Source of the DNA: a virus
Lineage: Duplodnaviria; Caudoviricetes
Virus record (IMG/VR): IMGVR_UViG_3300014613_000068
Location: 1-32,264 of that record
DNA: 32,264 bases
Strand: one strand, 5' to 3'
Positions 1,300-22,837 of the stretch are shown one piece after another (the first letter of the stretch is position 1; the number at the start of each line of letters is the position of its first letter). The notes under the pieces were generated by a model. It did no database searches. It was given only the letters and a program-made list of their open reading frames with translations, and was not told the origin of the DNA. Position numbers and translations under genes: made by a program.

Positions 1300-1363
1300 T
1301 CCTTAATGCAGCCTCCTTATATAATAAGGTGCCGGTCCCAAGCCCGGATAAATGCAGAGGGAA
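1300..1363 (+). ncRNA. Twister self-cleaving ribozyme #1
   Basis: U^AA at 1304/1305; P2 TGCA/TGCA (1307-10/1353-56); T2 GC/GC; P3 CCTTAT/ATAAGG; P4 CCGG/CCGG; L4 TCCCAAGC; T1 TCCC/GGGA. The core TGCCGGTCCCAAGCCCGGATAAA matches the canonical rice twister as I recall it. Confidence 0.93.
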
Positions 1364-1397
1364 TCCTTCAAAACCTTTTAAACAAAGGAGCAGGATA

Positions 1398-1742
1398 ATG
1401 GCTAAAGGGACTTCCAACAACAAAGCGAACAGCGGAGGCAAATGGATCCGGACCGAAAAGCGGGCCGCAATCTACCGTCGGGATAATTACCGCTGTGTGT
1501 ACTGCGGCGAGCACGTAGCAGACCCGGAAGTCGGGACCCTGACCCTGGATCACGTTCTGGCCCAGGAGCTTGGCGGGACGAACGAAGCGAACAATTTGGT
1601 GACAGCGTGCTTGTCGTGCAACAGCCGGAAGGGCAAGAAAACCACGACCCAGTTCGTCGCATACCTCCAGAGCAAAGGGGTGGACACGGAAGGGATCGCG
1701 AAACGGATTCGGAACGCCACAAGGCGGAAACTCAATAAATAA
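1398..1742 (+). CDS. HNH endonuclease (McrA/HNH_5-like)
   Basis: AAGGAG RBS and ATG at 1398. IYRRDNYRCVYCG...TLDHV...GGTNEANNLVTACLSCNSRKG. Confidence 0.92.
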   Translation: MAKGTSNNKANSGGKWIRTEKRAAIYRRDNYRCVYCGEHVADPEVGTLTLDHVLAQELGGTNEANNLVTACLSCNSRKGKKTTTQFVAYLQSKGVDTEGIAKRIRNATRRKLNK

Positions 1743-3635: not shown

Positions 3636-5666
3636 ATGTCCGACAAAGCTCTTCAGATTCAGGAGCGACCGGACCCCGCGAAGACGTACCGCGTGGAGGT
3701 CCCGGTCTGGCTGGCACTGAGAAAAAACGTGCCCGCCGTGTTCGTGGGAAGAGTTCTTGCCGATTCCGGTAAGGGCCTTCAGATTTATGGCCGAGGGACA
3801 ACGGACGGCCACGCAGTCTGCATGAGATGTGGTCGGGCCTTGACCCACCCGGTCAGCGTGCTCCTGGGCATCGGTCCTGAGTGCGGCGAACACTGGTGGG
3901 AACTGGGCAGGGCGATGACCGAGGCGGATCTGGAATACCTCCAGAGCAGGGTTCGGGAGATTATGGTCGAAGGCTGGTTCCCGGCGCGGTTCCTCTCACT
4001 GTATGAGACGACCGAAACGGTGGAGATTCCGGCTGGTATGAAGGCGGCCGAAGCCAAGAAGCCCGAGGATGCCAAAAAATGGGCCGGTCTTGTGGACGGC
4101 AAGATCGCAGTCAAGTTCTGGTTCCCGAAAGGGGACAACAGATTCAGCGATGCCCTGGCAATCGTCAAAGGCATTCCCGGACGCCGGTGGAAGCCGGAGA
4201 ACAAAACCTGGGTGGCCCCGTTCTCCGTGGAAGCGTATGAAGCCCTGGAACAGGACGGGTTCGAGATGGGTGACAGCCTCCAGGATGCGTATGCGCGGGT
4301 AGCCGGGGAAGTGGCCCAGGGCGAGGATCTGGGAGATGCTGACCTGGATGGGCGCTTGAGACCCTTCCAGAAGGATGGGGTGCTGTTCACGCGGGACCGG
4401 GGATACCGGGCTTTAATCGCCGACGAGATGGGTCTTGGCAAAACCGCCCAGGCCCTGGCTGCGATGAAGATGGCAGATGAATGGCCCGCTGTGGCTGTGG
4501 TGCCCGCAACCGTCAAGATCAACTGGATGCGGGAAGCCGCGATGTGGGTGCCGGGACTTCGAGTTCATATCCTCGCAGGCAGGAAGAATGGTGGGCTTCC
4601 CCCAGCGGATTTGTACATTATCAATTACGATATCCTGGGTGCTCGGCTGGAGGAATTAAAGGCCGTCGGGATCAAGTTTGTAGTGCTCGACGAATGTCAT
4701 TTCGTCAAGAACAAGGCCGCCCAGCGGACGAAGGCAGTCAAGGCACTCTGCAAGGGCGTGGAGAAGGTCGTGGCCCTCTCAGGGACCCCGATCACGAATC
4801 GGCCTGTGGAGTTCTTCACGGCCCTGAATCTGATCCGTCCTGAGGCGTTCCCGTCCTTCTGGCGGTATGCCCAGGAGTATTGCGGGGCCAAGCACAACGG
4901 ATTCGGCTGGGATTTTACCGGGGCAACGAACCTGGAGAAGCTCCACGAGATGTTGACCAGGACGGTGATGGTAAGGCGGCTCAAGGCCGATGTCCTCAAG
5001 GAGCTGCCGCCCAAGACGCGGGCTGTGGTCTCCCTGGAGATCGAAGATCGGAAGGGGTACGAGCGGCTGGAAATGGAGCTGCGGGAATGGGTCCGGGAGA
5101 ATCGGAACGCCAACGCAGAAGCACTTAGCCGGATCGAGCAGCTCAAACAGGCTGCGTTCGCCCGGAAGGAAAAGGCAGCGCTTTCCTGGATCAAGGACTT
5201 CCTGGACTCGGACCAGAAGCTGGTCGTGTTCTGCACGCACACAGCCACGGTAGATGCCGTGATGTCCGCCTTCCCAGGGGTAAGTGTAAGGGTAGACGGC
5301 AGGGACTCTCAGAACGCCAGACAGACGTCTGTGGACCGATTCCAGGAGGATGATTCTGTCCGCTTGTTCGTCGGCAATATCAAGGCGGCCGGTGTCGGGA
5401 TCACCTTGACGGCTTCCTCCAATACCTGCTTTTTGGAGCTTTCGTGGGCGCCTTCAGATCACGATCAGGCAGAAGACCGGGTTCACAGGATCGGGCAGGA
5501 TGACGCAGTCACGGCATGGTATCTCCTGGCGGATGGTACGATCGAATCCGAAATCAGCAAACTACTGGACAGCAAAAGGTCCGTCCTCTCTCAGGCGCTC
5601 GATGGCAAGGAGGCCGACTCCGGTTCCATGCTGCGCGAACTGATGGATGGTCTGGCCGGGGAATAA
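3636..5666 (+). CDS. SNF2-family (SMARCAL1/HARP-like) helicase with N-terminal DUF6011-like Zn domain
   Basis: CMRCGRALTHPVSVLLGIGPECG; LRPFQ; ADEMGLGKT; LDECH; LSGTPITN; GVGITLT; QAEDRVHRIGQ. Confidence 0.92.
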   Translation: MSDKALQIQERPDPAKTYRVEVPVWLALRKNVPAVFVGRVLADSGKGLQIYGRGTTDGHAVCMRCGRALTHPVSVLLGIGPECGEHWWELGRAMTEADLEYLQSRVREIMVEGWFPARFLSLYETTETVEIPAGMKAAEAKKPEDAKKWAGLVDGKIAVKFWFPKGDNRFSDALAIVKGIPGRRWKPENKTWVAPFSVEAYEALEQDGFEMGDSLQDAYARVAGEVAQGEDLGDADLDGRLRPFQKDGVLFTRDRGYRALIADEMGLGKTAQALAAMKMADEWPAVAVVPATVKINWMREAAMWVPGLRVHILAGRKNGGLPPADLYIINYDILGARLEELKAVGIKFVVLDECHFVKNKAAQRTKAVKALCKGVEKVVALSGTPITNRPVEFFTALNLIRPEAFPSFWRYAQEYCGAKHNGFGWDFTGATNLEKLHEMLTRTVMVRRLKADVLKELPPKTRAVVSLEIEDRKGYERLEMELREWVRENRNANAEALSRIEQLKQAAFARKEKAALSWIKDFLDSDQKLVVFCTHTATVDAVMSAFPGVSVRVDGRDSQNARQTSVDRFQEDDSVRLFVGNIKAAGVGITLTASSNTCFLELSWAPSDHDQAEDRVHRIGQDDAVTAWYLLADGTIESEISKLLDSKRSVLSQALDGKEADSGSMLRELMDGLAGE

Positions 5667-15044: not shown

Positions 15045-17354
15045 ATGGCCCGTCCGCTAAAATATGATGCTTTTCTCAAGGGGAAGCGTGTCTTGGACGT
15101 AGGGTCTGGATTTCAGGTTTCTCCGGAAGATATAGGACAATCTCTATTCCCATTCCAGCGGGAGATTGTGCGTTGGTCTTGTCAGCGTGGGCGCTCTGCG
15201 TGTTTTGCTGATTGTGGTCTCGGCAAGACCCCGATCCAGCTCGAATGGTCCCGGCTTATCTTAGAGCAGACTGGAAAACCCGTGCTCATATTCGCCCCTC
15301 TTGCCGTGTCGCGTCAGACCTGTCGGGAGGGAGACAAGTTTGGGGTTCCTGTTCGGGCTGTTCGTTCTCAGGATGAATGCGGAAAAGGGATCAACATAAC
15401 CAATTATGAGATGCTTTCCCATTTTGATCCGGAGAAGTTCGGGGCTCTTGTTTTGGATGAGTCGAGTATCCTCAAGGGGTTTGATGGGCGTTTCCGTAGG
15501 GAGGTTACGGAGTTTGCTTCCCGGATTCCGTTTCGTTTGGCTTGTACTGCGACACCGGCGCCGAATGATCTCGTGGAGATTGTGAATCACGCGGAGTTCC
15601 TCGGGATCATGGCAGAGAAGGAGATCAAGGCGCTTTTCTTTTCTAACAAGGCGACGGAGAGTACACAGAAGTGGGTTTTGAAGGAGCACGCTCGGGAGGA
15701 CTTTTGGACTTGGCTTGCATCGTGGGCTGTCTGTTTGCGGAAGCCCTCTGATCTCGGGTTTGATGATGACGGTTTTATTTTACCGCCGCTGGAAATACAG
15801 CAGGTGGTTGTGGGTAATGGGGGATGGTCCCCGCGCAGCGGTGGAGGTCGTCATGGTTTTGGGGTCGTTGAGGCGCAGGGACTTCGGGAGCGGCAGCTTG
15901 CCCGGCAGGCAAGCGTTGATGGGCGGGTACAAGCAGCCGCAGATCTCGTTAATGGAGACCGGGAGCAGTGGCTCGTGTGGTGTGATTTGAATGTTGAATC
16001 TGCTGCGCTTGCCAAGATTATGGAAGGCGCTGTGGAGGTTTGTGGCGCCGATTCACGGGAGCATAAGGAACGGTCTTTGATCGGATTTCAGGATGGGGCT
16101 GTGCGCGCGCTTGTCACGAAGCCGTCTATTGCGGGATTTGGTATGAATCTCCAGAACTGTGATCGGATGGTCTTTGTGGGCCTCAGTGATTCGTATGAGA
16201 AGTTTTATCAGGCAGTCCGCCGGAGTTGGCGATTTGGACAAGATCGTCCTGTTACGGCGTACGTGGTTACTTCTCAGGCAGAGGGTGGTGTCGTTCGTAA
16301 TATTGAACGGAAGGAAGCAGAGGCCTTGGCGCTTTTTGATAATTTAATATCTAACATGAACCTGGGGGGGCAGCTTTCAATATCTCGGGAGGAGGAATCA
16401 TACGTGGAATCCGTGGAGCGTGGGGAGGGCTGGGAGCTTCAGTTTGGGGATTCGGTTGAAACGATGGGCTCGTTGGCGGATGAATCTGTTGGCTTGTCCG
16501 TATTTTCTCCTCCATTTCCGGGCATGTATGTTTACACGAATACTCGCCGGGATGTGGGAAACAGCCAGAACTTAGACGAGCTGGTGGCGCATTTCCGGTT
16601 CATCATGGATAAAGATCACCTCTTGCGCGTGACAATGCCCGGTCGCCATTGCTGCATTCATTTGTCTCAGGCGGTGGCGTTTAAGGGCTCTGACGGATAC
16701 ATCGGGGTGAAGGACTTCCGAGGGCGCGTGATTCAGATGATGGAAGAGGAGGGCTGGATCTATTATGGAGAGGTCTGCATTGACAAGGACCCGCAGCTCA
16801 AAGCGATACGGACGAAGGACCGAGGGCTCCTGTTCAAGACACTCGCGAATGACGCGGCGCATCTTCATCCGGCGTTGGCGGATTATCTGCTCCAGTTTAG
16901 GAAGCCTGGGGATAATCCTGAGCCGATTCGGGCGGGGATTTCTGAGAAATATGGCAACCCAGGGGGATGGGTAACGCAGGAGGAGTGGATCGAATGGGCG
17001 GCCCCGGTCTGGTATAAGGCTTCCCAGGGACTTCCTGGTGGCATACGGGAATCGGATGTGCTTTCCGTTGTCGGGAGTAAGGATGACAAGGATGAAAAGC
17101 ATCTTGCTCCACTTCAGCTTGGGGTGATTGAGCGGGCTGTGAAGCTTTGGACAAACCCCGGAGACCTCGTTTGCAGTCCGTTTGCAGGGATTGGTTCGGA
17201 GGGATACGTGGCGCGGTGCCTTGGGCGTCGGTTTTGGGGATGCGAGTTGAAGCGAGCCTATTTTGATGTGGCCGTGAAAAACGTCAAGATGGCGAAAGCG
17301 CGGACGGGTGGATTCAATCTTGGTATGACCGTTTCCCGCAACAGGAGACGTTAA
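15045..17354 (+). CDS. SF2/SNF2-like helicase fused to an N6/N4 DNA methyltransferase
   Basis: LFPFQ, ADCGLGKT, LDESS, TATPAPN and QAVRRSWRFGQ, then SVFSPPF and CSPFAGIGSEG. Confidence 0.9.
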   Translation: MARPLKYDAFLKGKRVLDVGSGFQVSPEDIGQSLFPFQREIVRWSCQRGRSACFADCGLGKTPIQLEWSRLILEQTGKPVLIFAPLAVSRQTCREGDKFGVPVRAVRSQDECGKGINITNYEMLSHFDPEKFGALVLDESSILKGFDGRFRREVTEFASRIPFRLACTATPAPNDLVEIVNHAEFLGIMAEKEIKALFFSNKATESTQKWVLKEHAREDFWTWLASWAVCLRKPSDLGFDDDGFILPPLEIQQVVVGNGGWSPRSGGGRHGFGVVEAQGLRERQLARQASVDGRVQAAADLVNGDREQWLVWCDLNVESAALAKIMEGAVEVCGADSREHKERSLIGFQDGAVRALVTKPSIAGFGMNLQNCDRMVFVGLSDSYEKFYQAVRRSWRFGQDRPVTAYVVTSQAEGGVVRNIERKEAEALALFDNLISNMNLGGQLSISREEESYVESVERGEGWELQFGDSVETMGSLADESVGLSVFSPPFPGMYVYTNTRRDVGNSQNLDELVAHFRFIMDKDHLLRVTMPGRHCCIHLSQAVAFKGSDGYIGVKDFRGRVIQMMEEEGWIYYGEVCIDKDPQLKAIRTKDRGLLFKTLANDAAHLHPALADYLLQFRKPGDNPEPIRAGISEKYGNPGGWVTQEEWIEWAAPVWYKASQGLPGGIRESDVLSVVGSKDDKDEKHLAPLQLGVIERAVKLWTNPGDLVCSPFAGIGSEGYVARCLGRRFWGCELKRAYFDVAVKNVKMAKARTGGFNLGMTVSRNRRR

Positions 17355-17355
17355 A

Positions 17356-20007
17356 ATGGCCCGTAAAGGCTTCTTCAAGGCCAATGAGATCGCCCCAGCA
17401 CCCCAGGCATGGGGTCAGGGGACAAAGGCCGCCCAGGACCCTTGTGGGGCCTGTGGATTGGGTTCTGGGTGCTTGTCTCCGATGATACCGGCGGGTGGAG
17501 GAGGGCGGCTCGGGATTCTTGTCATCGGGGAAGCTCCCGGCCCAGAGGAAGATAAGCGGAGCGATCCGGGCCGTGGCCTGGGAGTGCATTTTGTTGGGCG
17601 GGACGGGAACCTGCTCGCAGAGGGTCTCAGGCCCGCCGGTGTACGGGATATTCAAAAGGATCTGCGCTTCACCAACGCAGTCTACTGCCGCCCATCTGAA
17701 AACAAGACCCCGACTGATCGTCAGATTGCTCTTTGCCGGTCCCACGTGTTCCAGGCGATCCAGGAGTTCAAGCCGAAAAAGATCATCCTTCTCGGGATGT
17801 CCGCGATCAAATCCTTGTACGGAGAGTTCAACGATATCGCAAGCAACGGGATCGGTCCTTGGATTGGTCGGGCGGTTCCTGATATGCGGTTTGGGGCCTG
17901 GGTATATCCGGTGTGGGAGCCGGGGTTTATTATCTCGGCGGGGCATTACGATGAAGTGATTCCACGAATATGGGATGAACACCTCCAGGGGGCCGTAGAG
18001 CATGATGCCCCTTTCCCGGAGATGTGGCGGGACGATCTGAGCTCTGTTCGGATATTGGATAGGCGGGAAGCGGTTCAGTATCTTTCGGCCTTAGCGCAGA
18101 AGACCGGGATTCGGATTGCTTTTGACTACGAGACAACGGGCCTGCGTCCATATGCGCCTGGGCAGAGGGTTTGGTCAATCGGGGTGGCCGAAGGCCCGGA
18201 TTCGGCGGTTGTTTTTCATTGGCACGAATCTCTCCAATATCCGTGGTCAGCGGTAATGGAAAGTGAACGAATCGCCAAGCTCGCGCATAACATGAAGTTC
18301 GAGGATCTTTGGACGCGGGATTGTCTTGGGATTGAACCTCGGAGCTGGTCTCGTTGCACGATGGTGATGGAGCACGTCCTGGACAACGGACCAAGCACAA
18401 AGGGGTTGAAGTTCCAAGCGGCGGTTCGGTTTGGCGCTTTTGGATATGGGGATGAAATATCGAAGTTCCTCAAGGGTCGGGAATCAGACGGTAAGGAAAG
18501 CAAATCCTCCAACGCCTTGAATTGGATTGATCAAGCTCCCCAGGCAGAGGTCCTCCGGTATAATGGGCTGGATGCAATGCTTACGTTCCGGCTGGCAGAC
18601 GACCAGGACAGGCGGCTTGGAGCGATGAGAAACGGTGGTTCTTTGTCGAACGCATATGGGCTCCTTCACGAGGGGAGTTTGACGCTTTCTCGCGTAGAGT
18701 CTGCCGGGATTTGCGTGGATCTTGATTGGTACGGTTCGGAGGCCGAACGTCTTGACCAGGAGATCATAAGGCTGGAGGCCCTGGTCCGGACAGATCCGCA
18801 GGTTGTCAAATGGGAAGCAAGTTCAGGGAAGCAATTCAATCCCGGTTCGCCCGTTGCCATGAGGGACGTTCTTTTCGGGAAGGGATTCTATGGGCTGAAG
18901 CCGGTCAAGAAAACAGCGAAGGCCAAGGCCGCCAGCGTGGATGAATCCGTGATGGATGAGGTGGCAAAGTCCGTCCCTTTTGCGGCTGCGGCTGTCCGTC
19001 TCTCAAAGTCGAAAAAGACACGGAACACATATCTTGAGGGCTTTACCCGAGAGCAATGGGAAGGGCTTCTTCATCCGTCTTTCAACCTACATCTTGTTCG
19101 GACTTACCGAAGCAGCTCAGACCACCCGAATTTTCAGAACGTCCCCCGGAAAGATGAGGAAGCTGGGAAGGCGACTCGGTCAGGGATCGTTCCATCGGAA
19201 GGTAGGGTCCTTCTGGAGGTGGATTATTCCGGGATCGAGGTCCGGATGGAGGCGTGTAATACGAAGGACACTGCATTGATAAAGTATTTGTCTGATCCGG
19301 GGAGTGGGGATATGCACCGGGATCAGGCGATGGAATTATTCTTTCTGGGGCCGGAGGCTGTTCCAAAACCTTTGCGAGATGTGGCGAAGTCGTCTTTCGT
19401 CTTTGCCTCGTTTTACGGGTCCTATTGGAAGCAGACCGGCACGGATATGTGGGGTCATATCGCGGATATGGCCTTGGGAGACGGAACACCGGTTCGGGAG
19501 CATCTGGCAGATCGCGATATAAACAACGAGGACGGCTTTCTGCGACATGTCAAACGGGTGGAGTATCGCCTGTGGCGGAAGTTCGCCGGGGTTAAGAAGT
19601 TCCAGGACGAGATCCAAGCTCGATATAAACGGGACGGCTTCATTGACCTCCTGACGGGATTCAGGTGCTGGGGTCCGTTGAGCCGGAATGAGCTTTTCAA
19701 CTATCCGAACCAGGGGCCGGGATTCCATTGTCTCTTGTGGTCGATGAATCGTATTTACCGGGAGATCCAGGCAGCCGGGATGGATTCCCTTATGGTGGGA
19801 CAGATTCATGATTCTATCGTGTTTGACGCCGTTCCAGACGAGGTTCCTGATCTGATGTGCATGGTGCAAAGGGTCATGTGTGAGGACATCCGAGAGGCTT
19901 GGCCGTGGATCATTGTTCCGTTAGAGATCGAGACGGACGCAACAGCGATAGATGGAAATTGGTGGGAGAAGCATCTTTTACCGGAGCCGTGGAACCTGGG
20001 GGATTGA
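17356..20007 (+). CDS. family A DNA polymerase with N-terminal family-4 UDG-like domain (SPO1-type)
   Basis: CGAC..GEAPG..FVGRDG..TNAVYCRP; exonuclease FDYETTG, AHNMKFE, YNGLDA; polymerase VDYSGIE, RDVAK..F...YG, QIHDS. Confidence 0.93.
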   Translation: MARKGFFKANEIAPAPQAWGQGTKAAQDPCGACGLGSGCLSPMIPAGGGGRLGILVIGEAPGPEEDKRSDPGRGLGVHFVGRDGNLLAEGLRPAGVRDIQKDLRFTNAVYCRPSENKTPTDRQIALCRSHVFQAIQEFKPKKIILLGMSAIKSLYGEFNDIASNGIGPWIGRAVPDMRFGAWVYPVWEPGFIISAGHYDEVIPRIWDEHLQGAVEHDAPFPEMWRDDLSSVRILDRREAVQYLSALAQKTGIRIAFDYETTGLRPYAPGQRVWSIGVAEGPDSAVVFHWHESLQYPWSAVMESERIAKLAHNMKFEDLWTRDCLGIEPRSWSRCTMVMEHVLDNGPSTKGLKFQAAVRFGAFGYGDEISKFLKGRESDGKESKSSNALNWIDQAPQAEVLRYNGLDAMLTFRLADDQDRRLGAMRNGGSLSNAYGLLHEGSLTLSRVESAGICVDLDWYGSEAERLDQEIIRLEALVRTDPQVVKWEASSGKQFNPGSPVAMRDVLFGKGFYGLKPVKKTAKAKAASVDESVMDEVAKSVPFAAAAVRLSKSKKTRNTYLEGFTREQWEGLLHPSFNLHLVRTYRSSSDHPNFQNVPRKDEEAGKATRSGIVPSEGRVLLEVDYSGIEVRMEACNTKDTALIKYLSDPGSGDMHRDQAMELFFLGPEAVPKPLRDVAKSSFVFASFYGSYWKQTGTDMWGHIADMALGDGTPVREHLADRDINNEDGFLRHVKRVEYRLWRKFAGVKKFQDEIQARYKRDGFIDLLTGFRCWGPLSRNELFNYPNQGPGFHCLLWSMNRIYREIQAAGMDSLMVGQIHDSIVFDAVPDEVPDLMCMVQRVMCEDIREAWPWIIVPLEIETDATAIDGNWWEKHLLPEPWNLGD

Positions 20008-20008
20008 A

Positions 20009-20200
20009 ATGGCGGAGCAAGATACCTGGGAATTTGATTATGACGAGTTGGTTCATGAAACGGATTTGGCCTGGGGCTTGGACATGGGGGATGGGCCGGA
20101 TGAACTTGTCTGGTTCCCGAAGTCCCAATGCGAACTTGACGAAGACACAGAAACGATAATTGTCCCAGTGTGGCTTGCCGAGCAAAAAGACTTGATCTAA
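20009..20200 (+). CDS. small acidic hypothetical protein (VWFPKSQ motif)
   Basis: ATG 20009; WFPKSQC..VPVWLA pattern seen in small phage proteins. Confidence 0.7.
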   Translation: MAEQDTWEFDYDELVHETDLAWGLDMGDGPDELVWFPKSQCELDEDTETIIVPVWLAEQKDLI

Positions 20201-20212
20201 GGAGGGCTGGAA

Positions 20213-22270
20213 ATGCCGTTGCATCTGAGTTACAGGCCGGAGAAATGGGAAGACCTTGTTGGGAATGCGGGAACGGTATCAGCCTTGCGGTCCGTCCTCT
20301 CCAACACAGACTGCCCTCATTCATACCTCTTCCAGGGACCAACCGGATGTGGCAAGACAACCCTCGCCAGGATCGTGGCTCGGGAGATTGGATGTGATGA
20401 ACGGGATCTCCTGGAGCTGAACGCCGCCGAAGCTCGTGGGATAGATACTGCCCGTGGGATTATTGAGCGGATGCGGTACAAGCCTGCCTGGGGAAAGTCC
20501 CGCGTATTCCTCCTCGATGAATGTTTTTCTGGGGGTTCCCTTGTGCGTACTGTTGGAGGGTCTGTTGAGATTCAGCATATTATTCCGGGGGATTTTGTAT
20601 TCAACATTGCGGGGAAAAGTCGCGTGGAGGAAGTATTTAAGAATAGAGTTCCTCTTCAAAACGTTGTTCGATTATGTTTTTCAGATGGGTCTGTTATATT
20701 TTGCTCTAAGGATCATTTGTTTTTGACGTGTGCGGGTTGGGTTAAGGCAAAGGCGTTAAAAAAAGAATTGATTTTGAAATTCAATAGTAGTATATTGTTA
20801 AGCGGGGACCAACGAAAGGAGATTAAAAATGGAAGATCGGGTATGCATTTATTGCGGAAACAGTTACCGGACAAGAAGCAAAACGCAAACGTACTGTTCA
20901 AATTTTTGCAGGAACAGGGCAAGAAAACGAGTGTTACAAAAGGCTTGCGAATGGTGTGGCATAGTTTTTACAACGCGGCGCGCCGGAACATATACGAAGC
21001 GTTTTTGTTCCCCATCATGCGTTGGGAAATGGAGTACGAGCAGACCGGGAAGACGCGAGCTGTTGGTAGCAGCAGGAAAGAAGGGCGGTCAGGCTGTAAT
21101 AGAATCCAGGAAGAAAAATCCAGAGTTGTTTTTGGCGTTAGCGAAAAAAAGTTCCGAGCGCTTGAAGCGGTTCAATCCGATGATGTCCCCGCACGCAGTA
21201 GAGAAAGCGAGGAATACAAAGCATATCAATGGGACGCTTCATGTATGGCCCGGGGAACGTGGTGGAAATGGACACTATACGCGGCCGCAAGAGCTTTTGG
21301 CTGTTTCTTTGGGGTGGCCGATGGAAGTAGTCATATCTTTGGGAGAGCGAAGGTCAGGATTCCCTACGTGCTACAAGGTAGACATCGGGAATCTGGGGTT
21401 GAAGTTGGCGATAGAGGTGGATGGACGGGGACATGGGATGAAAGAAGTTATCTTGAGAGATCAAAAAAAGACATCCGCTCTAAACAAATTAGGTTGGAAA
21501 GTATTGCGTTTTACGAACAAGGATGTACTGACGCGGCTTTCGTGGGTGTTATTGGAGATAAAGAAAGAGATTCGGGCTTTGTAACATTTTATGATTTACA
21601 GGTTGCGGGACATCCGTCTTATTTTGTGGGCGATATTCCCGTACATAATTGTCACAAGGCCACTTCAGATTTCCAGAATGCTCTTTTGAAGTCGATGGAG
21701 GAACCGCCTGACCATGTTTACTTCATCCTCTGCACGACGGAACCGGAGAAGCTCCTCAAGACCGTCCGGGGCCGTTGTTCCGTGTTTGAGGTCCGCCTCT
21801 TGACGAATGACGAGATGGGGGATCTCTTGGATGAAGTGGCCGCTCAGGAGGAAGGGGACTCGCCCCGGATCACGGATGCCGTCATTGATGAGATCATAAA
21901 GTCTGCTCAGGGACATCCCAGGGATGCGCTGGTGCTGCTGGATCAGGTACTTGGTCTGGCGGATGAAGCCGAGATGCTGGCTGCGATCAGATCCTCCGGG
22001 GTAGATGAACGGGAAGTGATCGAGCTTTGCCGCGCCTTGATGAAGGGGGCAAAGTGGCCTCGTGTCCAGGCAATCCTCCAAGGGCTGGCTGCGGACCCGG
22101 AGAAGATACGAAGGGCCGTCTTGGGGTACTGTGGGTCCATCATGGAGCGGGAATCGGATCGGGGGGTGGTCGGTCAGGCGGCTTTGGTGGCAGAGTGTTT
22201 TCGGGAGCCAACATATGATCTGGGGCGTCCGGGGATCATCCTGTCTTGTTTCGACGCCCTTTCCGGATAA
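20213..22270 (+). CDS. clamp loader AAA+ subunit (DnaX gamma/tau-like), intein-containing
   Basis: YRP; GPTGCGKTT; ELNAA..RGID; LLDE|intein|CH; NALLKSMEEPP; TVRGRC; GHPRDA. The spliced product is 309 aa. Confidence 0.92.
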   Translation: MPLHLSYRPEKWEDLVGNAGTVSALRSVLSNTDCPHSYLFQGPTGCGKTTLARIVAREIGCDERDLLELNAAEARGIDTARGIIERMRYKPAWGKSRVFLLDECFSGGSLVRTVGGSVEIQHIIPGDFVFNIAGKSRVEEVFKNRVPLQNVVRLCFSDGSVIFCSKDHLFLTCAGWVKAKALKKELILKFNSSILLSGDQRKEIKNGRSGMHLLRKQLPDKKQNANVLFKFLQEQGKKTSVTKGLRMVWHSFYNAARRNIYEAFLFPIMRWEMEYEQTGKTRAVGSSRKEGRSGCNRIQEEKSRVVFGVSEKKFRALEAVQSDDVPARSRESEEYKAYQWDASCMARGTWWKWTLYAAARAFGCFFGVADGSSHIFGRAKVRIPYVLQGRHRESGVEVGDRGGWTGTWDERSYLERSKKDIRSKQIRLESIAFYEQGCTDAAFVGVIGDKERDSGFVTFYDLQVAGHPSYFVGDIPVHNCHKATSDFQNALLKSMEEPPDHVYFILCTTEPEKLLKTVRGRCSVFEVRLLTNDEMGDLLDEVAAQEEGDSPRITDAVIDEIIKSAQGHPRDALVLLDQVLGLADEAEMLAAIRSSGVDEREVIELCRALMKGAKWPRVQAILQGLAADPEKIRRAVLGYCGSIMERESDRGVVGQAALVAECFREPTYDLGRPGIILSCFDALSG
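20768..20821 (+). promoter_or_regulatory. promoter and RBS for the nested endonuclease, inside the intein coding sequence
   Basis: TTGATT (20768-73), 17 nt, TATATT (20791-96); AAGGAG at 20816-21, 7 nt before ATG 20829. Confidence 0.7.
20829..21584 (+). CDS. Vsr/DUF559-like homing endonuclease with Zn-ribbon repeats, nested in the +1 frame of the intein
   Basis: Two CxxC..YCS/FCSxxC repeats; YKVDIG...LAIEVDGRGH...RDQKK...LGWKVLRFTN. Confidence 0.88.
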   Translation: MEDRVCIYCGNSYRTRSKTQTYCSNFCRNRARKRVLQKACEWCGIVFTTRRAGTYTKRFCSPSCVGKWSTSRPGRRELLVAAGKKGGQAVIESRKKNPELFLALAKKSSERLKRFNPMMSPHAVEKARNTKHINGTLHVWPGERGGNGHYTRPQELLAVSLGWPMEVVISLGERRSGFPTCYKVDIGNLGLKLAIEVDGRGHGMKEVILRDQKKTSALNKLGWKVLRFTNKDVLTRLSWVLLEIKKEIRAL

Positions 22271-22296
22271 TAAGGCCCCTTTTGGGTATAATGTAA
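22263..22296 (+). promoter_or_regulatory. phage-specific promoter motif, copy 3
   Basis: CCGG-ATA-ATAAGG-N9-GGTATAATGTAA. Confidence 0.8.
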
Positions 22297-22313
22297 GCAG
22301 GGAGGATTTTTAT

Positions 22314-22571
22314 ATGAACGCGGAAGAAAAAGCCAAAACCATTTGTCAGTTTTGCTGTTCCTGGGATGGTCGGGAGGTGCGGTGGACTTCTGTCTCGACC
22401 CTCCTGGGCTTTTCTGGTGAGAATATTACCAGGACGGTTCGTCTTTGCCGACGGTGCGAGAAACTATTCCCCGGACAGATTTGGGGTGCTCTTTCTTCGG
22501 ACGAACTCATTGCAAAGGGTCTCCGGATGGTTGAAGCGGGAGAAGGAGGATCATTATGCGTCGACGGGTGA
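22314..22571 (+). CDS. small Zn-binding hypothetical protein
   Basis: GGAGG RBS; CQFC...CRRC. Confidence 0.65.
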   Translation: MNAEEKAKTICQFCCSWDGREVRWTSVSTLLGFSGENITRTVRLCRRCEKLFPGQIWGALSSDELIAKGLRMVEAGEGGSLCVDG

Positions 22572-22837
22572 ACAGGGAAGGTGGGGAGAATCCACCGAAT
22601 GGGGGTTCCAATGTGACCCCGTATGTCCCAGGGTCGAAGGTCCGGGTGTCTTTTTCCTATACGGTGAACATGGGGAATTATGAATCTGCCAAGCTCGAAA
22701 GTTCCGTAGATCGGGAGCTGGCCCCAGGCGAGGATCTGGATTCGGCAATGGATACTGAGTTTGCCCGGTGCCGTGAGTTCGTAGAGGCGAAGGTTTTGGA
22801 AGTGGAGGAGGATCATGGCCGTGAACGCAGACGATAG
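22556..22837 (+). CDS. hypothetical phage protein (YTVNMGNYES motif)
   Basis: AAGGAGG RBS; operon packing. Confidence 0.7.
   Translation: MRRRVNREGGENPPNGGSNVTPYVPGSKVRVSFSYTVNMGNYESAKLESSVDRELAPGEDLDSAMDTEFARCREFVEAKVLEVEEDHGRERRR

Follow-up and report, generated by a model that had tools for sequence, protein, structure and literature searches.

Introduction

Nuclease genes lying out of frame with the intein that carries them have been described in contiguous inteins. Those of actinophages contain open reading frames (ORFs) for antisense Vsr-like, antisense LAGLIDADG, and same-strand EndoVII nucleases, which are proposed to have originated by invasion of free-standing nucleases and which annotation is expected to miss (Gosselin et al., bioRxiv 10.1101/2025.01.02.630785). 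A dnaX intein contains an out-of-frame LAGLIDADG nuclease gene with a Shine-Dalgarno (SD) sequence and frame-dependent ratios of nonsynonymous to synonymous substitutions, dN/dS (Phillips et al., bioRxiv 10.64898/2026.09.14.751524). The model for fractured phage genes, which hold a Vsr-like nuclease gene between split-intein halves, provides for split or in-frame outcomes only (PMC2677866). Here, we analyze a contiguous intein in the clamp-loader gene of a virus of the class Caudoviricetes, overlapped in the +1 frame of the same strand by the gene of a zinc-finger/Vsr-like nuclease. The locus is part of IMG/VR record IMGVR_UViG_3300014613_000068 (positions 1 to 32,264; this whole stretch of 32,264 nucleotides is called the window). 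The preliminary description of the window presented the layout as a third, new architecture; the architecture is known, however, because out-of-frame nucleases in contiguous inteins have been reported, in addition to the split form. New here are a nuclease tail selected in both frames, mini-inteins that keep this tail, and two near-identical pairs of cultured phages differing by the intein and the Cys codon at the +1 position, the first residue after the intein. Among open-access papers and preprints, we found none that treats this family, a same-strand Vsr-like ORF in an intein, or the overlap of such a nuclease with a strand used for splicing.

The window intein resembles the cyanobacterial dnaX intein of Phillips et al. 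in being contiguous, in residing in a clamp-loader gene, and in its disordered in-frame middle. Both families have an overlapping nuclease gene (the cyanobacterial '+2 ORF') with a putative SD sequence, and full, mini, and empty alleles. However, the cyanobacterial system has a LAGLIDADG nuclease and cellular hosts, whereas the window family has zinc-finger/Vsr nucleases, is found in phages, and also occupies helicases. The overlap of the nuclease with a splicing strand is not described for the cyanobacterial intein, and the Spl DnaX mini-intein is a distant structural match to the predicted window intein (Z 14.9, rank 45). Actinophage inteins are likewise contiguous with the nuclease in a separate ORF, including Vsr-like/EDxHD-like ones. 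Among them, the Vsr-like ORF runs antisense and the same-strand ORF, in frame 3, encodes EndoVII, whereas the Vsr-like ORF of the window is on the same strand in frame +1. The actinophage inteins reside in polymerase, minor capsid, terminase, and thymidylate synthase genes rather than in clamp loaders and helicases, and their splicing domain is typically free of the second ORF, while in the window the second ORF overlaps a splicing strand. Fractured genes share with the window a Vsr-like nuclease inside an intein, with its own expression signals and a 3′ overlap with the C-terminal intein part, but their intein frame is broken, whereas that of the window is open across the whole nuclease. In the ShiLan insertion (PMC11855218), as in the window family, the host frame is open across a hidden nuclease, and filled and empty alleles differ at the +1 position; unlike in the window, the nuclease is of the HNH type, in the third frame of a phage methylase gene, and there is no splicing domain. 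In these earlier papers, homing by an out-of-frame nuclease was inferred and not tested.

A clamp-loader intein with an overlapping nuclease gene

The layout of the locus is real, and both frames are under selection. With high probability, the element is a homing intein whose EDxHD-like nuclease is translated separately. The locus has the following parts:

20213-20521, + strand: N-extein, AAA+ clamp-loader (DnaX/RFC-like) ATPase with Walker A, ending in Walker B ...LLDE
20522-21649, + strand: contiguous intein of 376 residues (Cys1, SxxH with His65, Asp358, His375-Asn376), with GC content at third codon positions (GC3) below that of the host
20522-20791, + strand: N-terminal Hint lobe (N-lobe), blocks A and B, selected in the intein frame
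20768-20796, + strand: σ70-like promoter candidate TTGATT-17-TATATT, its −10 box ending 32 nucleotides 5′ of the nuclease ATG
20816-20821, + strand: SD sequence AAGGAG, 7 nucleotides 5′ of the nuclease ATG
20829-21584, + strand: +1-frame gene of 251 residues with two CxxC...CxxxC zinc-finger repeats, a helical linker, an RGGNG motif, and a Vsr/DUF559 nuclease domain
21488-21514, + strand: dual-coded segment, intein strand IRLESIAFY and nuclease LGWKVLRFT, with constrained nuclease synonymous sites
21587-21649, + strand: intein blocks F and G, 3′ of the nuclease stop codon
21650-22270, + strand: C-extein of the clamp loader, its first residue being the +1 Cys

The clamp-loader ORF (20213-22270) encodes 685 residues without a stop, and its Walker B motif is broken by the 376-residue insert at DE^C, the caret marking the insertion point. 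The exteins match adjoining stretches, 4-102 and 103-217, of a single clamp-loader profile, phrog_5846. Removal of the insert restores a contiguous host protein, as the exteins abut in the profile and empty homologues read DE-C/V-H.

The insert is predicted to be a class 1 cis-splicing intein. It has the splicing blocks that the preliminary description had assigned to it, from Cys1 to His375-Asn376 followed by Cys at the +1 position. Block B reads SKDH (SxxH, with Ser for the Thr of TxxH), and its His65 is invariant in 20 of 20 sequences; the block F aspartate is Asp358, within FYDL. In the predicted structure the ends are confident, whereas the middle has a predicted local distance difference test score (pLDDT) below 50. 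The model is a complete Hint fold in one chain: 123 residues align with the gp41-1 intein (root mean square deviation 1.6, Z 18.1), and solved inteins align over 123-128 residues with Z of 17-18.6, even though the Pfam and TIGR intein scores are under the family cut-offs. The in-frame middle, correctly described at the outset as free of a nuclease motif, has no match in Pfam, PHROGs, or NCBIfam and no usable match in Atlas. The element is thus unlike a canonical full-length intein, as it has no in-frame nuclease domain between blocks B and F, and unlike a split intein or fractured gene, as the frame is open across 20213-22270 with no indel relative to the assemblies. It corresponds to a non-canonical intein whose nuclease is encoded by an overlapping ORF selected in its own frame. 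Window positions 20522-21184 also match weakly NF038136, an intein-containing Rv2578c radical SAM family (E 6.9e-5), reaching beyond the N-lobe.

The +1-frame protein matches DUF559 with an E-value of 5.5e-11, better than the Pfam cut-off, and zf-FCS weakly (E 0.0012), in agreement with the zinc ribbon and Vsr/DUF559 nuclease recognized earlier. Its ORF is stop-free, while the third frame over the same stretch contains 18 stops. The nuclease domain contains E166, D185, E196, D198, H202, and D211, the last five of which are invariant in 85 of 85 homologues. The predicted structure (mean pLDDT 89) has its best fold match in I-Bth0305I (E 4.5e-4), followed by a DUF559 protein and Vsr. The Vsr-like fold and the conserved E, D, H, and D active-site residues place the protein among the EDxHD (Vsr-like) nucleases. 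Its D185-H202-D211 have the same spacing, 17 and 9, as D196-H213-D222 of I-Bth0305I, and both proteins have an N-terminal binding region and a C-terminal nuclease (PMC3239194). I-Bth0305I, however, contains NUMOD repeats and is hosted by a group I intron, whereas the N-terminal region of the window nuclease is formed by FCS-like zinc-finger repeats, not of the NUMOD type, and its host is an intein. Activity and dimer formation were demonstrated for I-Bth0305I; in the predicted window nuclease, the zinc fingers and helices would bind DNA. It is absent from a 15-billion-protein collection.

Both reading frames are under selection

Searches with the nuclease identified 112 loci; grouping these and the window at 90% core identity yielded 87 clusters. 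No count includes L201, which is identical to the window. In the window, the intein frame has no stops over the overlap, compared to a mean of 10.3 after synonymous shuffling of the nuclease, and none of 1000 shuffles reached zero. The frame one base upstream of the nuclease is stop-free in 85 of the 87 cluster representatives. Synonymous shuffles predict 1035 intein-frame stops for all representatives together, and 10 are observed; in the third frame, 1757 are observed and 1601 predicted. Nine of the ten stops are in the free-standing L101, which has no intein and whose count equals that of its null (9 against 10.2). The tenth is a single TAG in L060 (2764-2766), at a nuclease Asn-Arg codon pair, in what is a dead allele or an assembly error. 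Recoding of TAG in L060 is not supported, since readthrough would lengthen the nuclease ORF too.

Ratios of nonsynonymous to synonymous polymorphism (pN/pS) were compared in 11 disjoint pairs. For the N-lobe, the intein-frame ratio is 0.39 and the +1-frame ratio 0.98; the corresponding values are 1.16 and 0.38 for the overlap, and 0.19 and 1.59 for the C-terminal end. Therefore, the intein-frame middle is filler kept free of stops. Together, stop avoidance, the invariant nuclease residues, and frame-specific pN/pS bear out the proposal of a dual-coded nuclease gene wrapped in a contiguous intein.

Near its 3′ end, the nuclease shares bases with a splicing strand, as originally noticed: LGWKVLRFT starts at 21489 and IRLESIAFY at 21488. 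The latter begins at intein residue 323, inside a predicted strand with pLDDT of about 89, and is probably part of the Hint fold because the alignment of 123 residues is longer than the N-lobe and blocks F-G combined. At the synonymous sites of LGWxVLRF, codons that yield R-V-E-S-I-E-I in the intein frame are favored. The third base of Gly222 is G in 70 of 82 sequences, compared to 13 of 56 at the other Gly-Trp (Gly162); Leu226 is TTR in 71/79, against 39/85 at Leu218; and Arg227 is AGR in 68/85, against 21/78 at Arg144. These contrasts were made within the same sequences. On this evidence, the last strand and helix of the nuclease double as intein sequence selected in both frames. Two points weigh against the strength of this evidence: the codon counts overstate significance because related sequences are not independent, and the pN/pS pairs, 71-99% identical, do not include the window. 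As a large natural collection, the family lends itself to studies of how a single DNA segment can encode two folded proteins.

Recurrence and probable mobility of the element

Another 52 loci, 46 metagenomic and six from cultured phages, bring the number of clusters to 110. Fifty of them have no stop or frameshift. A single stop interrupts L213, and L247 contains a frameshift; in L241, the C-terminal junction could not be resolved. Clamp loaders are the hosts in 35 of the 87 representatives, and the others include SF2/SNF2 helicases, as assigned from 34 scanned regions rather than from all hosts. Across the family, the insertion sites are DE^C, DE^S, DEAH^C/S, or DEIHK^C. In L041, L067, L073, L076, and L098 (DExH^C/S) and in L015 and L082 (DEIHK^C), the insertion point is displaced downstream by 2-3 codons along motif II/Walker B. 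The L105 and L110 helicases contain, in the N-extein, an additional intein of the LAGLIDADG type, located upstream of the dual-coded intein. The annotation of the cultured phages CP-T1, phi673, MR14, 1.194.O, 104E43.1, and K391 lists the helicase alone, and the nuclease is unannotated in 6/6 loci. Many decayed-looking phage inteins thus carry an intact nuclease gene overlooked by gene callers.

A search with the block G DNA pattern alone found 114 loci, 94 of them distinct. A +1 nuclease match accompanies 93, and the last has a nuclease remnant; the result measures the family's own lineage, not inteins at large, because the pattern is the family consensus. Viral contigs searched with the whole precursor gave no match, nor did a word search with the intein N-lobe at E 1e-8.

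Among the best 80 C-extein matches, one has the insert, 75 lack it (with Walker A in view), and four are truncated or unclear. At the +1 position, 70 distinct empty alleles have Cys in 30 cases and another residue in 39, with one unresolved, while filled DE-site clamp loaders have Cys in 34/34. Two pairs of cultured phages provide the strongest evidence of mobility. The helicase genes of phi673 and phi674, phages of Corynebacterium glutamicum, are 99.1% identical and differ by exactly the intein. Those of CP-T1 and VchM-138, which are 96.4% identical, also differ by exactly the intein. In both pairs, the +1 codon differs at all three bases amid otherwise sparse differences, and the empty alleles have Val or Ala there. 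Judging from these alleles, either the element brought its own Cys by co-conversion, or the empty alleles are resistant. Comparison of the cultured pairs led us to drop the reading that DE-Val/Ala alleles cannot be invaded. Co-conversion of the +1 residue is mentioned as an idea in PMC11855218, and the phi673 intein is noted in PMC6132909, in a passage that does not mention the nuclease. The phi673 (with intein) and phi674 (without) phages, which grow on a harmless host, are a ready pair for studying homing by an out-of-frame nuclease.

These comparisons suggest that the intein and the overlapping +1 nuclease gene likely travel together as one homing element. The case for mobility is, however, weakened by three considerations. 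The extein tree is patchy, with 14 changes, yet its well-supported branches force just two of them. The GC3 of the window intein ends (0.36/0.29) is lower than that of the exteins (0.61/0.67), but inteins of this family are AT-richer than exteins generally (mean −0.13 GC3), which makes the difference a weaker argument. Lastly, the empty cultured alleles may be resistant rather than the invaded type because of their Val/Ala at the +1 position.

We propose the following mechanism. Translation in the intein frame would produce the 685-residue precursor, from which the Hint domain would splice itself out, taking with it about 230 residues of unstructured filler and leaving a 309-residue clamp loader. 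The 251-residue EDxHD-like nuclease would result from separate initiation at the SD/ATG (20829), probably also on transcripts from an internal promoter. Cleavage by the nuclease would then take place close to the Walker B codons of an intein-free allele in a co-infecting phage, and during repair the intein would be copied into that allele, probably with its +1 Cys codon. The last strand and helix of the nuclease would have become incorporated into the intein's own sequence.

It is improbable that the nuclease is instead a parasite or passenger of the intein, kept for its own spread or for cutting competing phage DNA rather than for homing. Such a role would fit the existence of the free-standing relative L101, and the empty DE^CH site in the SNF2 gene of the same genome, which resembles the clamp-loader site. 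L101, however, nests within the helicase-intein nucleases with 96% support in the Shimodaira-Hasegawa-like approximate likelihood ratio test, with midpoint rooting only. Moreover, intein and nuclease are present or absent as a single unit in near-identical alleles, and 93 of the 94 distinct inteins found from the intein side carry the +1 nuclease, the last its remnant. L101 (2306-2947), nested as a free-standing member among intein-borne nucleases, is possibly an escapee; a search for its free-standing relatives returned only L101 itself and one unrelated match.

Signals for expression of the nuclease

The AAGGAG ribosome-binding site reported for the window is present, with an SD energy of −8.7 kcal/mol. 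In homologues, the candidate start was defined as the ATG nearest upstream of the first CxxC, or GTG/TTG where there is no ATG. The median SD energy is −5.8 kcal/mol at 85 candidate starts, compared to −2.1 at 1187 control ATGs (p 2e-11). The 33 clamp-loader representatives start at intein codons 79-106, mostly with a strong SD. A promoter-like site is found in 15 of these 33 members, against 2.2 expected from shuffling and 4.1 from synonymous redraws, and their −10 boxes cluster 28-40 nucleotides from the ATG. These signals indicate that the nuclease is likely independently translated and that the clamp-loader clade likely has an internal promoter. The separate expression claimed for the window nuclease hence gains likelihood while remaining a prediction, and the claimed promoter site is present and belongs to an enriched class, although it does not stand above chance by itself. 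Other signals point the opposite way. The window has one promoter site in 2.4 kb where 2.5 are expected, and its candidate scores slightly under the threshold used for homologues, at which helicase members have the signal in only 3/52. While 64% of candidate starts pass −4 kcal/mol, 36% have no clear SD by that rule.

The weak SD at about a third of the candidate starts would be accounted for if the nuclease were made from the clamp-loader frame, by +1 ribosomal frameshifting or coupling, and not from its own start. Several helicase members, in which the open +1 frame begins well before the zinc finger, are consistent with this, as are two singleton proteins (P0039, P0088) that join the N-lobe to the nuclease tail. 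We consider such synthesis quite unlikely in view of the position, SD strength, and promoter-like sites of the 33 clamp-loader starts. The two fused proteins occur on one contig each and shift in mid-nuclease like an assembly indel; they were rejected as natural N-lobe/nuclease fusions.

In L061, L062, L074, L193, and L195-L198, the intein's G-D or D-E-V codons, with which the N-lobe ends, supply the nuclease SD. The +1 frame is open from intein codon ~20-52 (into block B), or beyond the intein end, in L017, L018, L020-L028, the L010 group, L063, and L079. RNA run X3 contains one 223-nucleotide contig identical to 21250-21470, and X4 contains scraps outside or unlike the locus; these contigs were not used as evidence of expression because they show neither strand nor level. 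No joints skipping the intein were seen in these runs.

Mini-inteins and the likely course of decay

Among 66 inteins whose two ends are both visible, four are mini-inteins of 143-178 residues. The +1 tail of the nuclease is retained in each of these, in L298 nearly as in the window. A profile search, in which only rows ending in VHN^CH were used, gave six clamp-loader mini-inteins shorter than 200 residues among 48 rows, some possibly the same (P0110 is L298), with the nuclease tail in the intein frame in five of the six. Since mini-inteins retain the tail, decay likely proceeds by internal deletion to a contiguous mini-intein, which gives intein decay a polarity from full to mini. Loss of the nuclease in this manner leaves the tail behind because the tail is part of the intein.

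We tentatively extend this to the whole lineage, with somewhat less than even confidence: in a widespread phage intein lineage, the nuclease tail may have been built into the splicing domain, and the separately expressed nuclease may let the element home into Walker B motifs in two ATPase families that are unrelated, carrying along the +1 Cys required for splicing. If so, the nuclease can never be lost cleanly, and every mini-intein bears its fossil. Speaking against repeated movement between the two families, a single origin of the clamp-loader group is not rejected by the approximately unbiased (AU) test (p-AU 0.71). With that origin standing and L101 nested as described, only one switch between helicases and clamp loaders is required; several switches, hinted at by a quick tree, were not upheld by the AU test.

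The preliminary description also suggested that the layout might be an intermediate to or from split inteins. That it is a transient stage of this kind is very unlikely. Fractured genes do hold a Vsr-like gene between split-intein halves, with a 3′ overlap of 6-69 bp with the C-half (PMC2677866), the intein frame can be interrupted by just one synonymous nuclease mutation, as L060 illustrates, and an ancient origin through re-fusion of a fractured gene may have occurred. However, the contiguous form is kept across 110 clusters, the recurrent reduced form is the contiguous mini-intein, and broken copies are rare (L060, L213, L247, P0039, and P0088 are single cases). L060 was rejected as a split intein, having no SD for a restart of the C-half at any downstream start. 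Locus searches with the nuclease and with the block G pattern found no split loci carrying the same nuclease.

There is a negligible probability that the offset stems from faulty assembly, or that two compensating indels have shifted a decayed nuclease originally in frame, because contigs from two DNA runs (spanning 19800-22600 and 20465-22600; both runs may themselves be the source of the window DNA) show 0 differences and 0 gaps to the window, the offset recurs in 85/87 clusters and 6/6 cultured-phage loci, and selection acts on the +1 frame.

Genomic setting

According to profile matches, the window is a phage replication module encoding a primase, DnaB, a sliding clamp, PolA, an SSB-like protein, RecA, RusA, and an SbcCD-like protein. 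Two of its other genes contain empty sites of types occupied by the same intein family in other genomes. The SNF2 helicase gene (3636-5666) has an empty VVLDE^CH site near 4680-4710, whose core DNA closely resembles the clamp-loader junction, and the helicase-methylase fusion gene (15045-17354) has an empty LVLDE^SS site near 15447-15480. PolA (17356-20007) has a uracil-DNA glycosylase-like domain at its N terminus. A small free-standing HNH gene is located close to the left end of the window (1329-1742).

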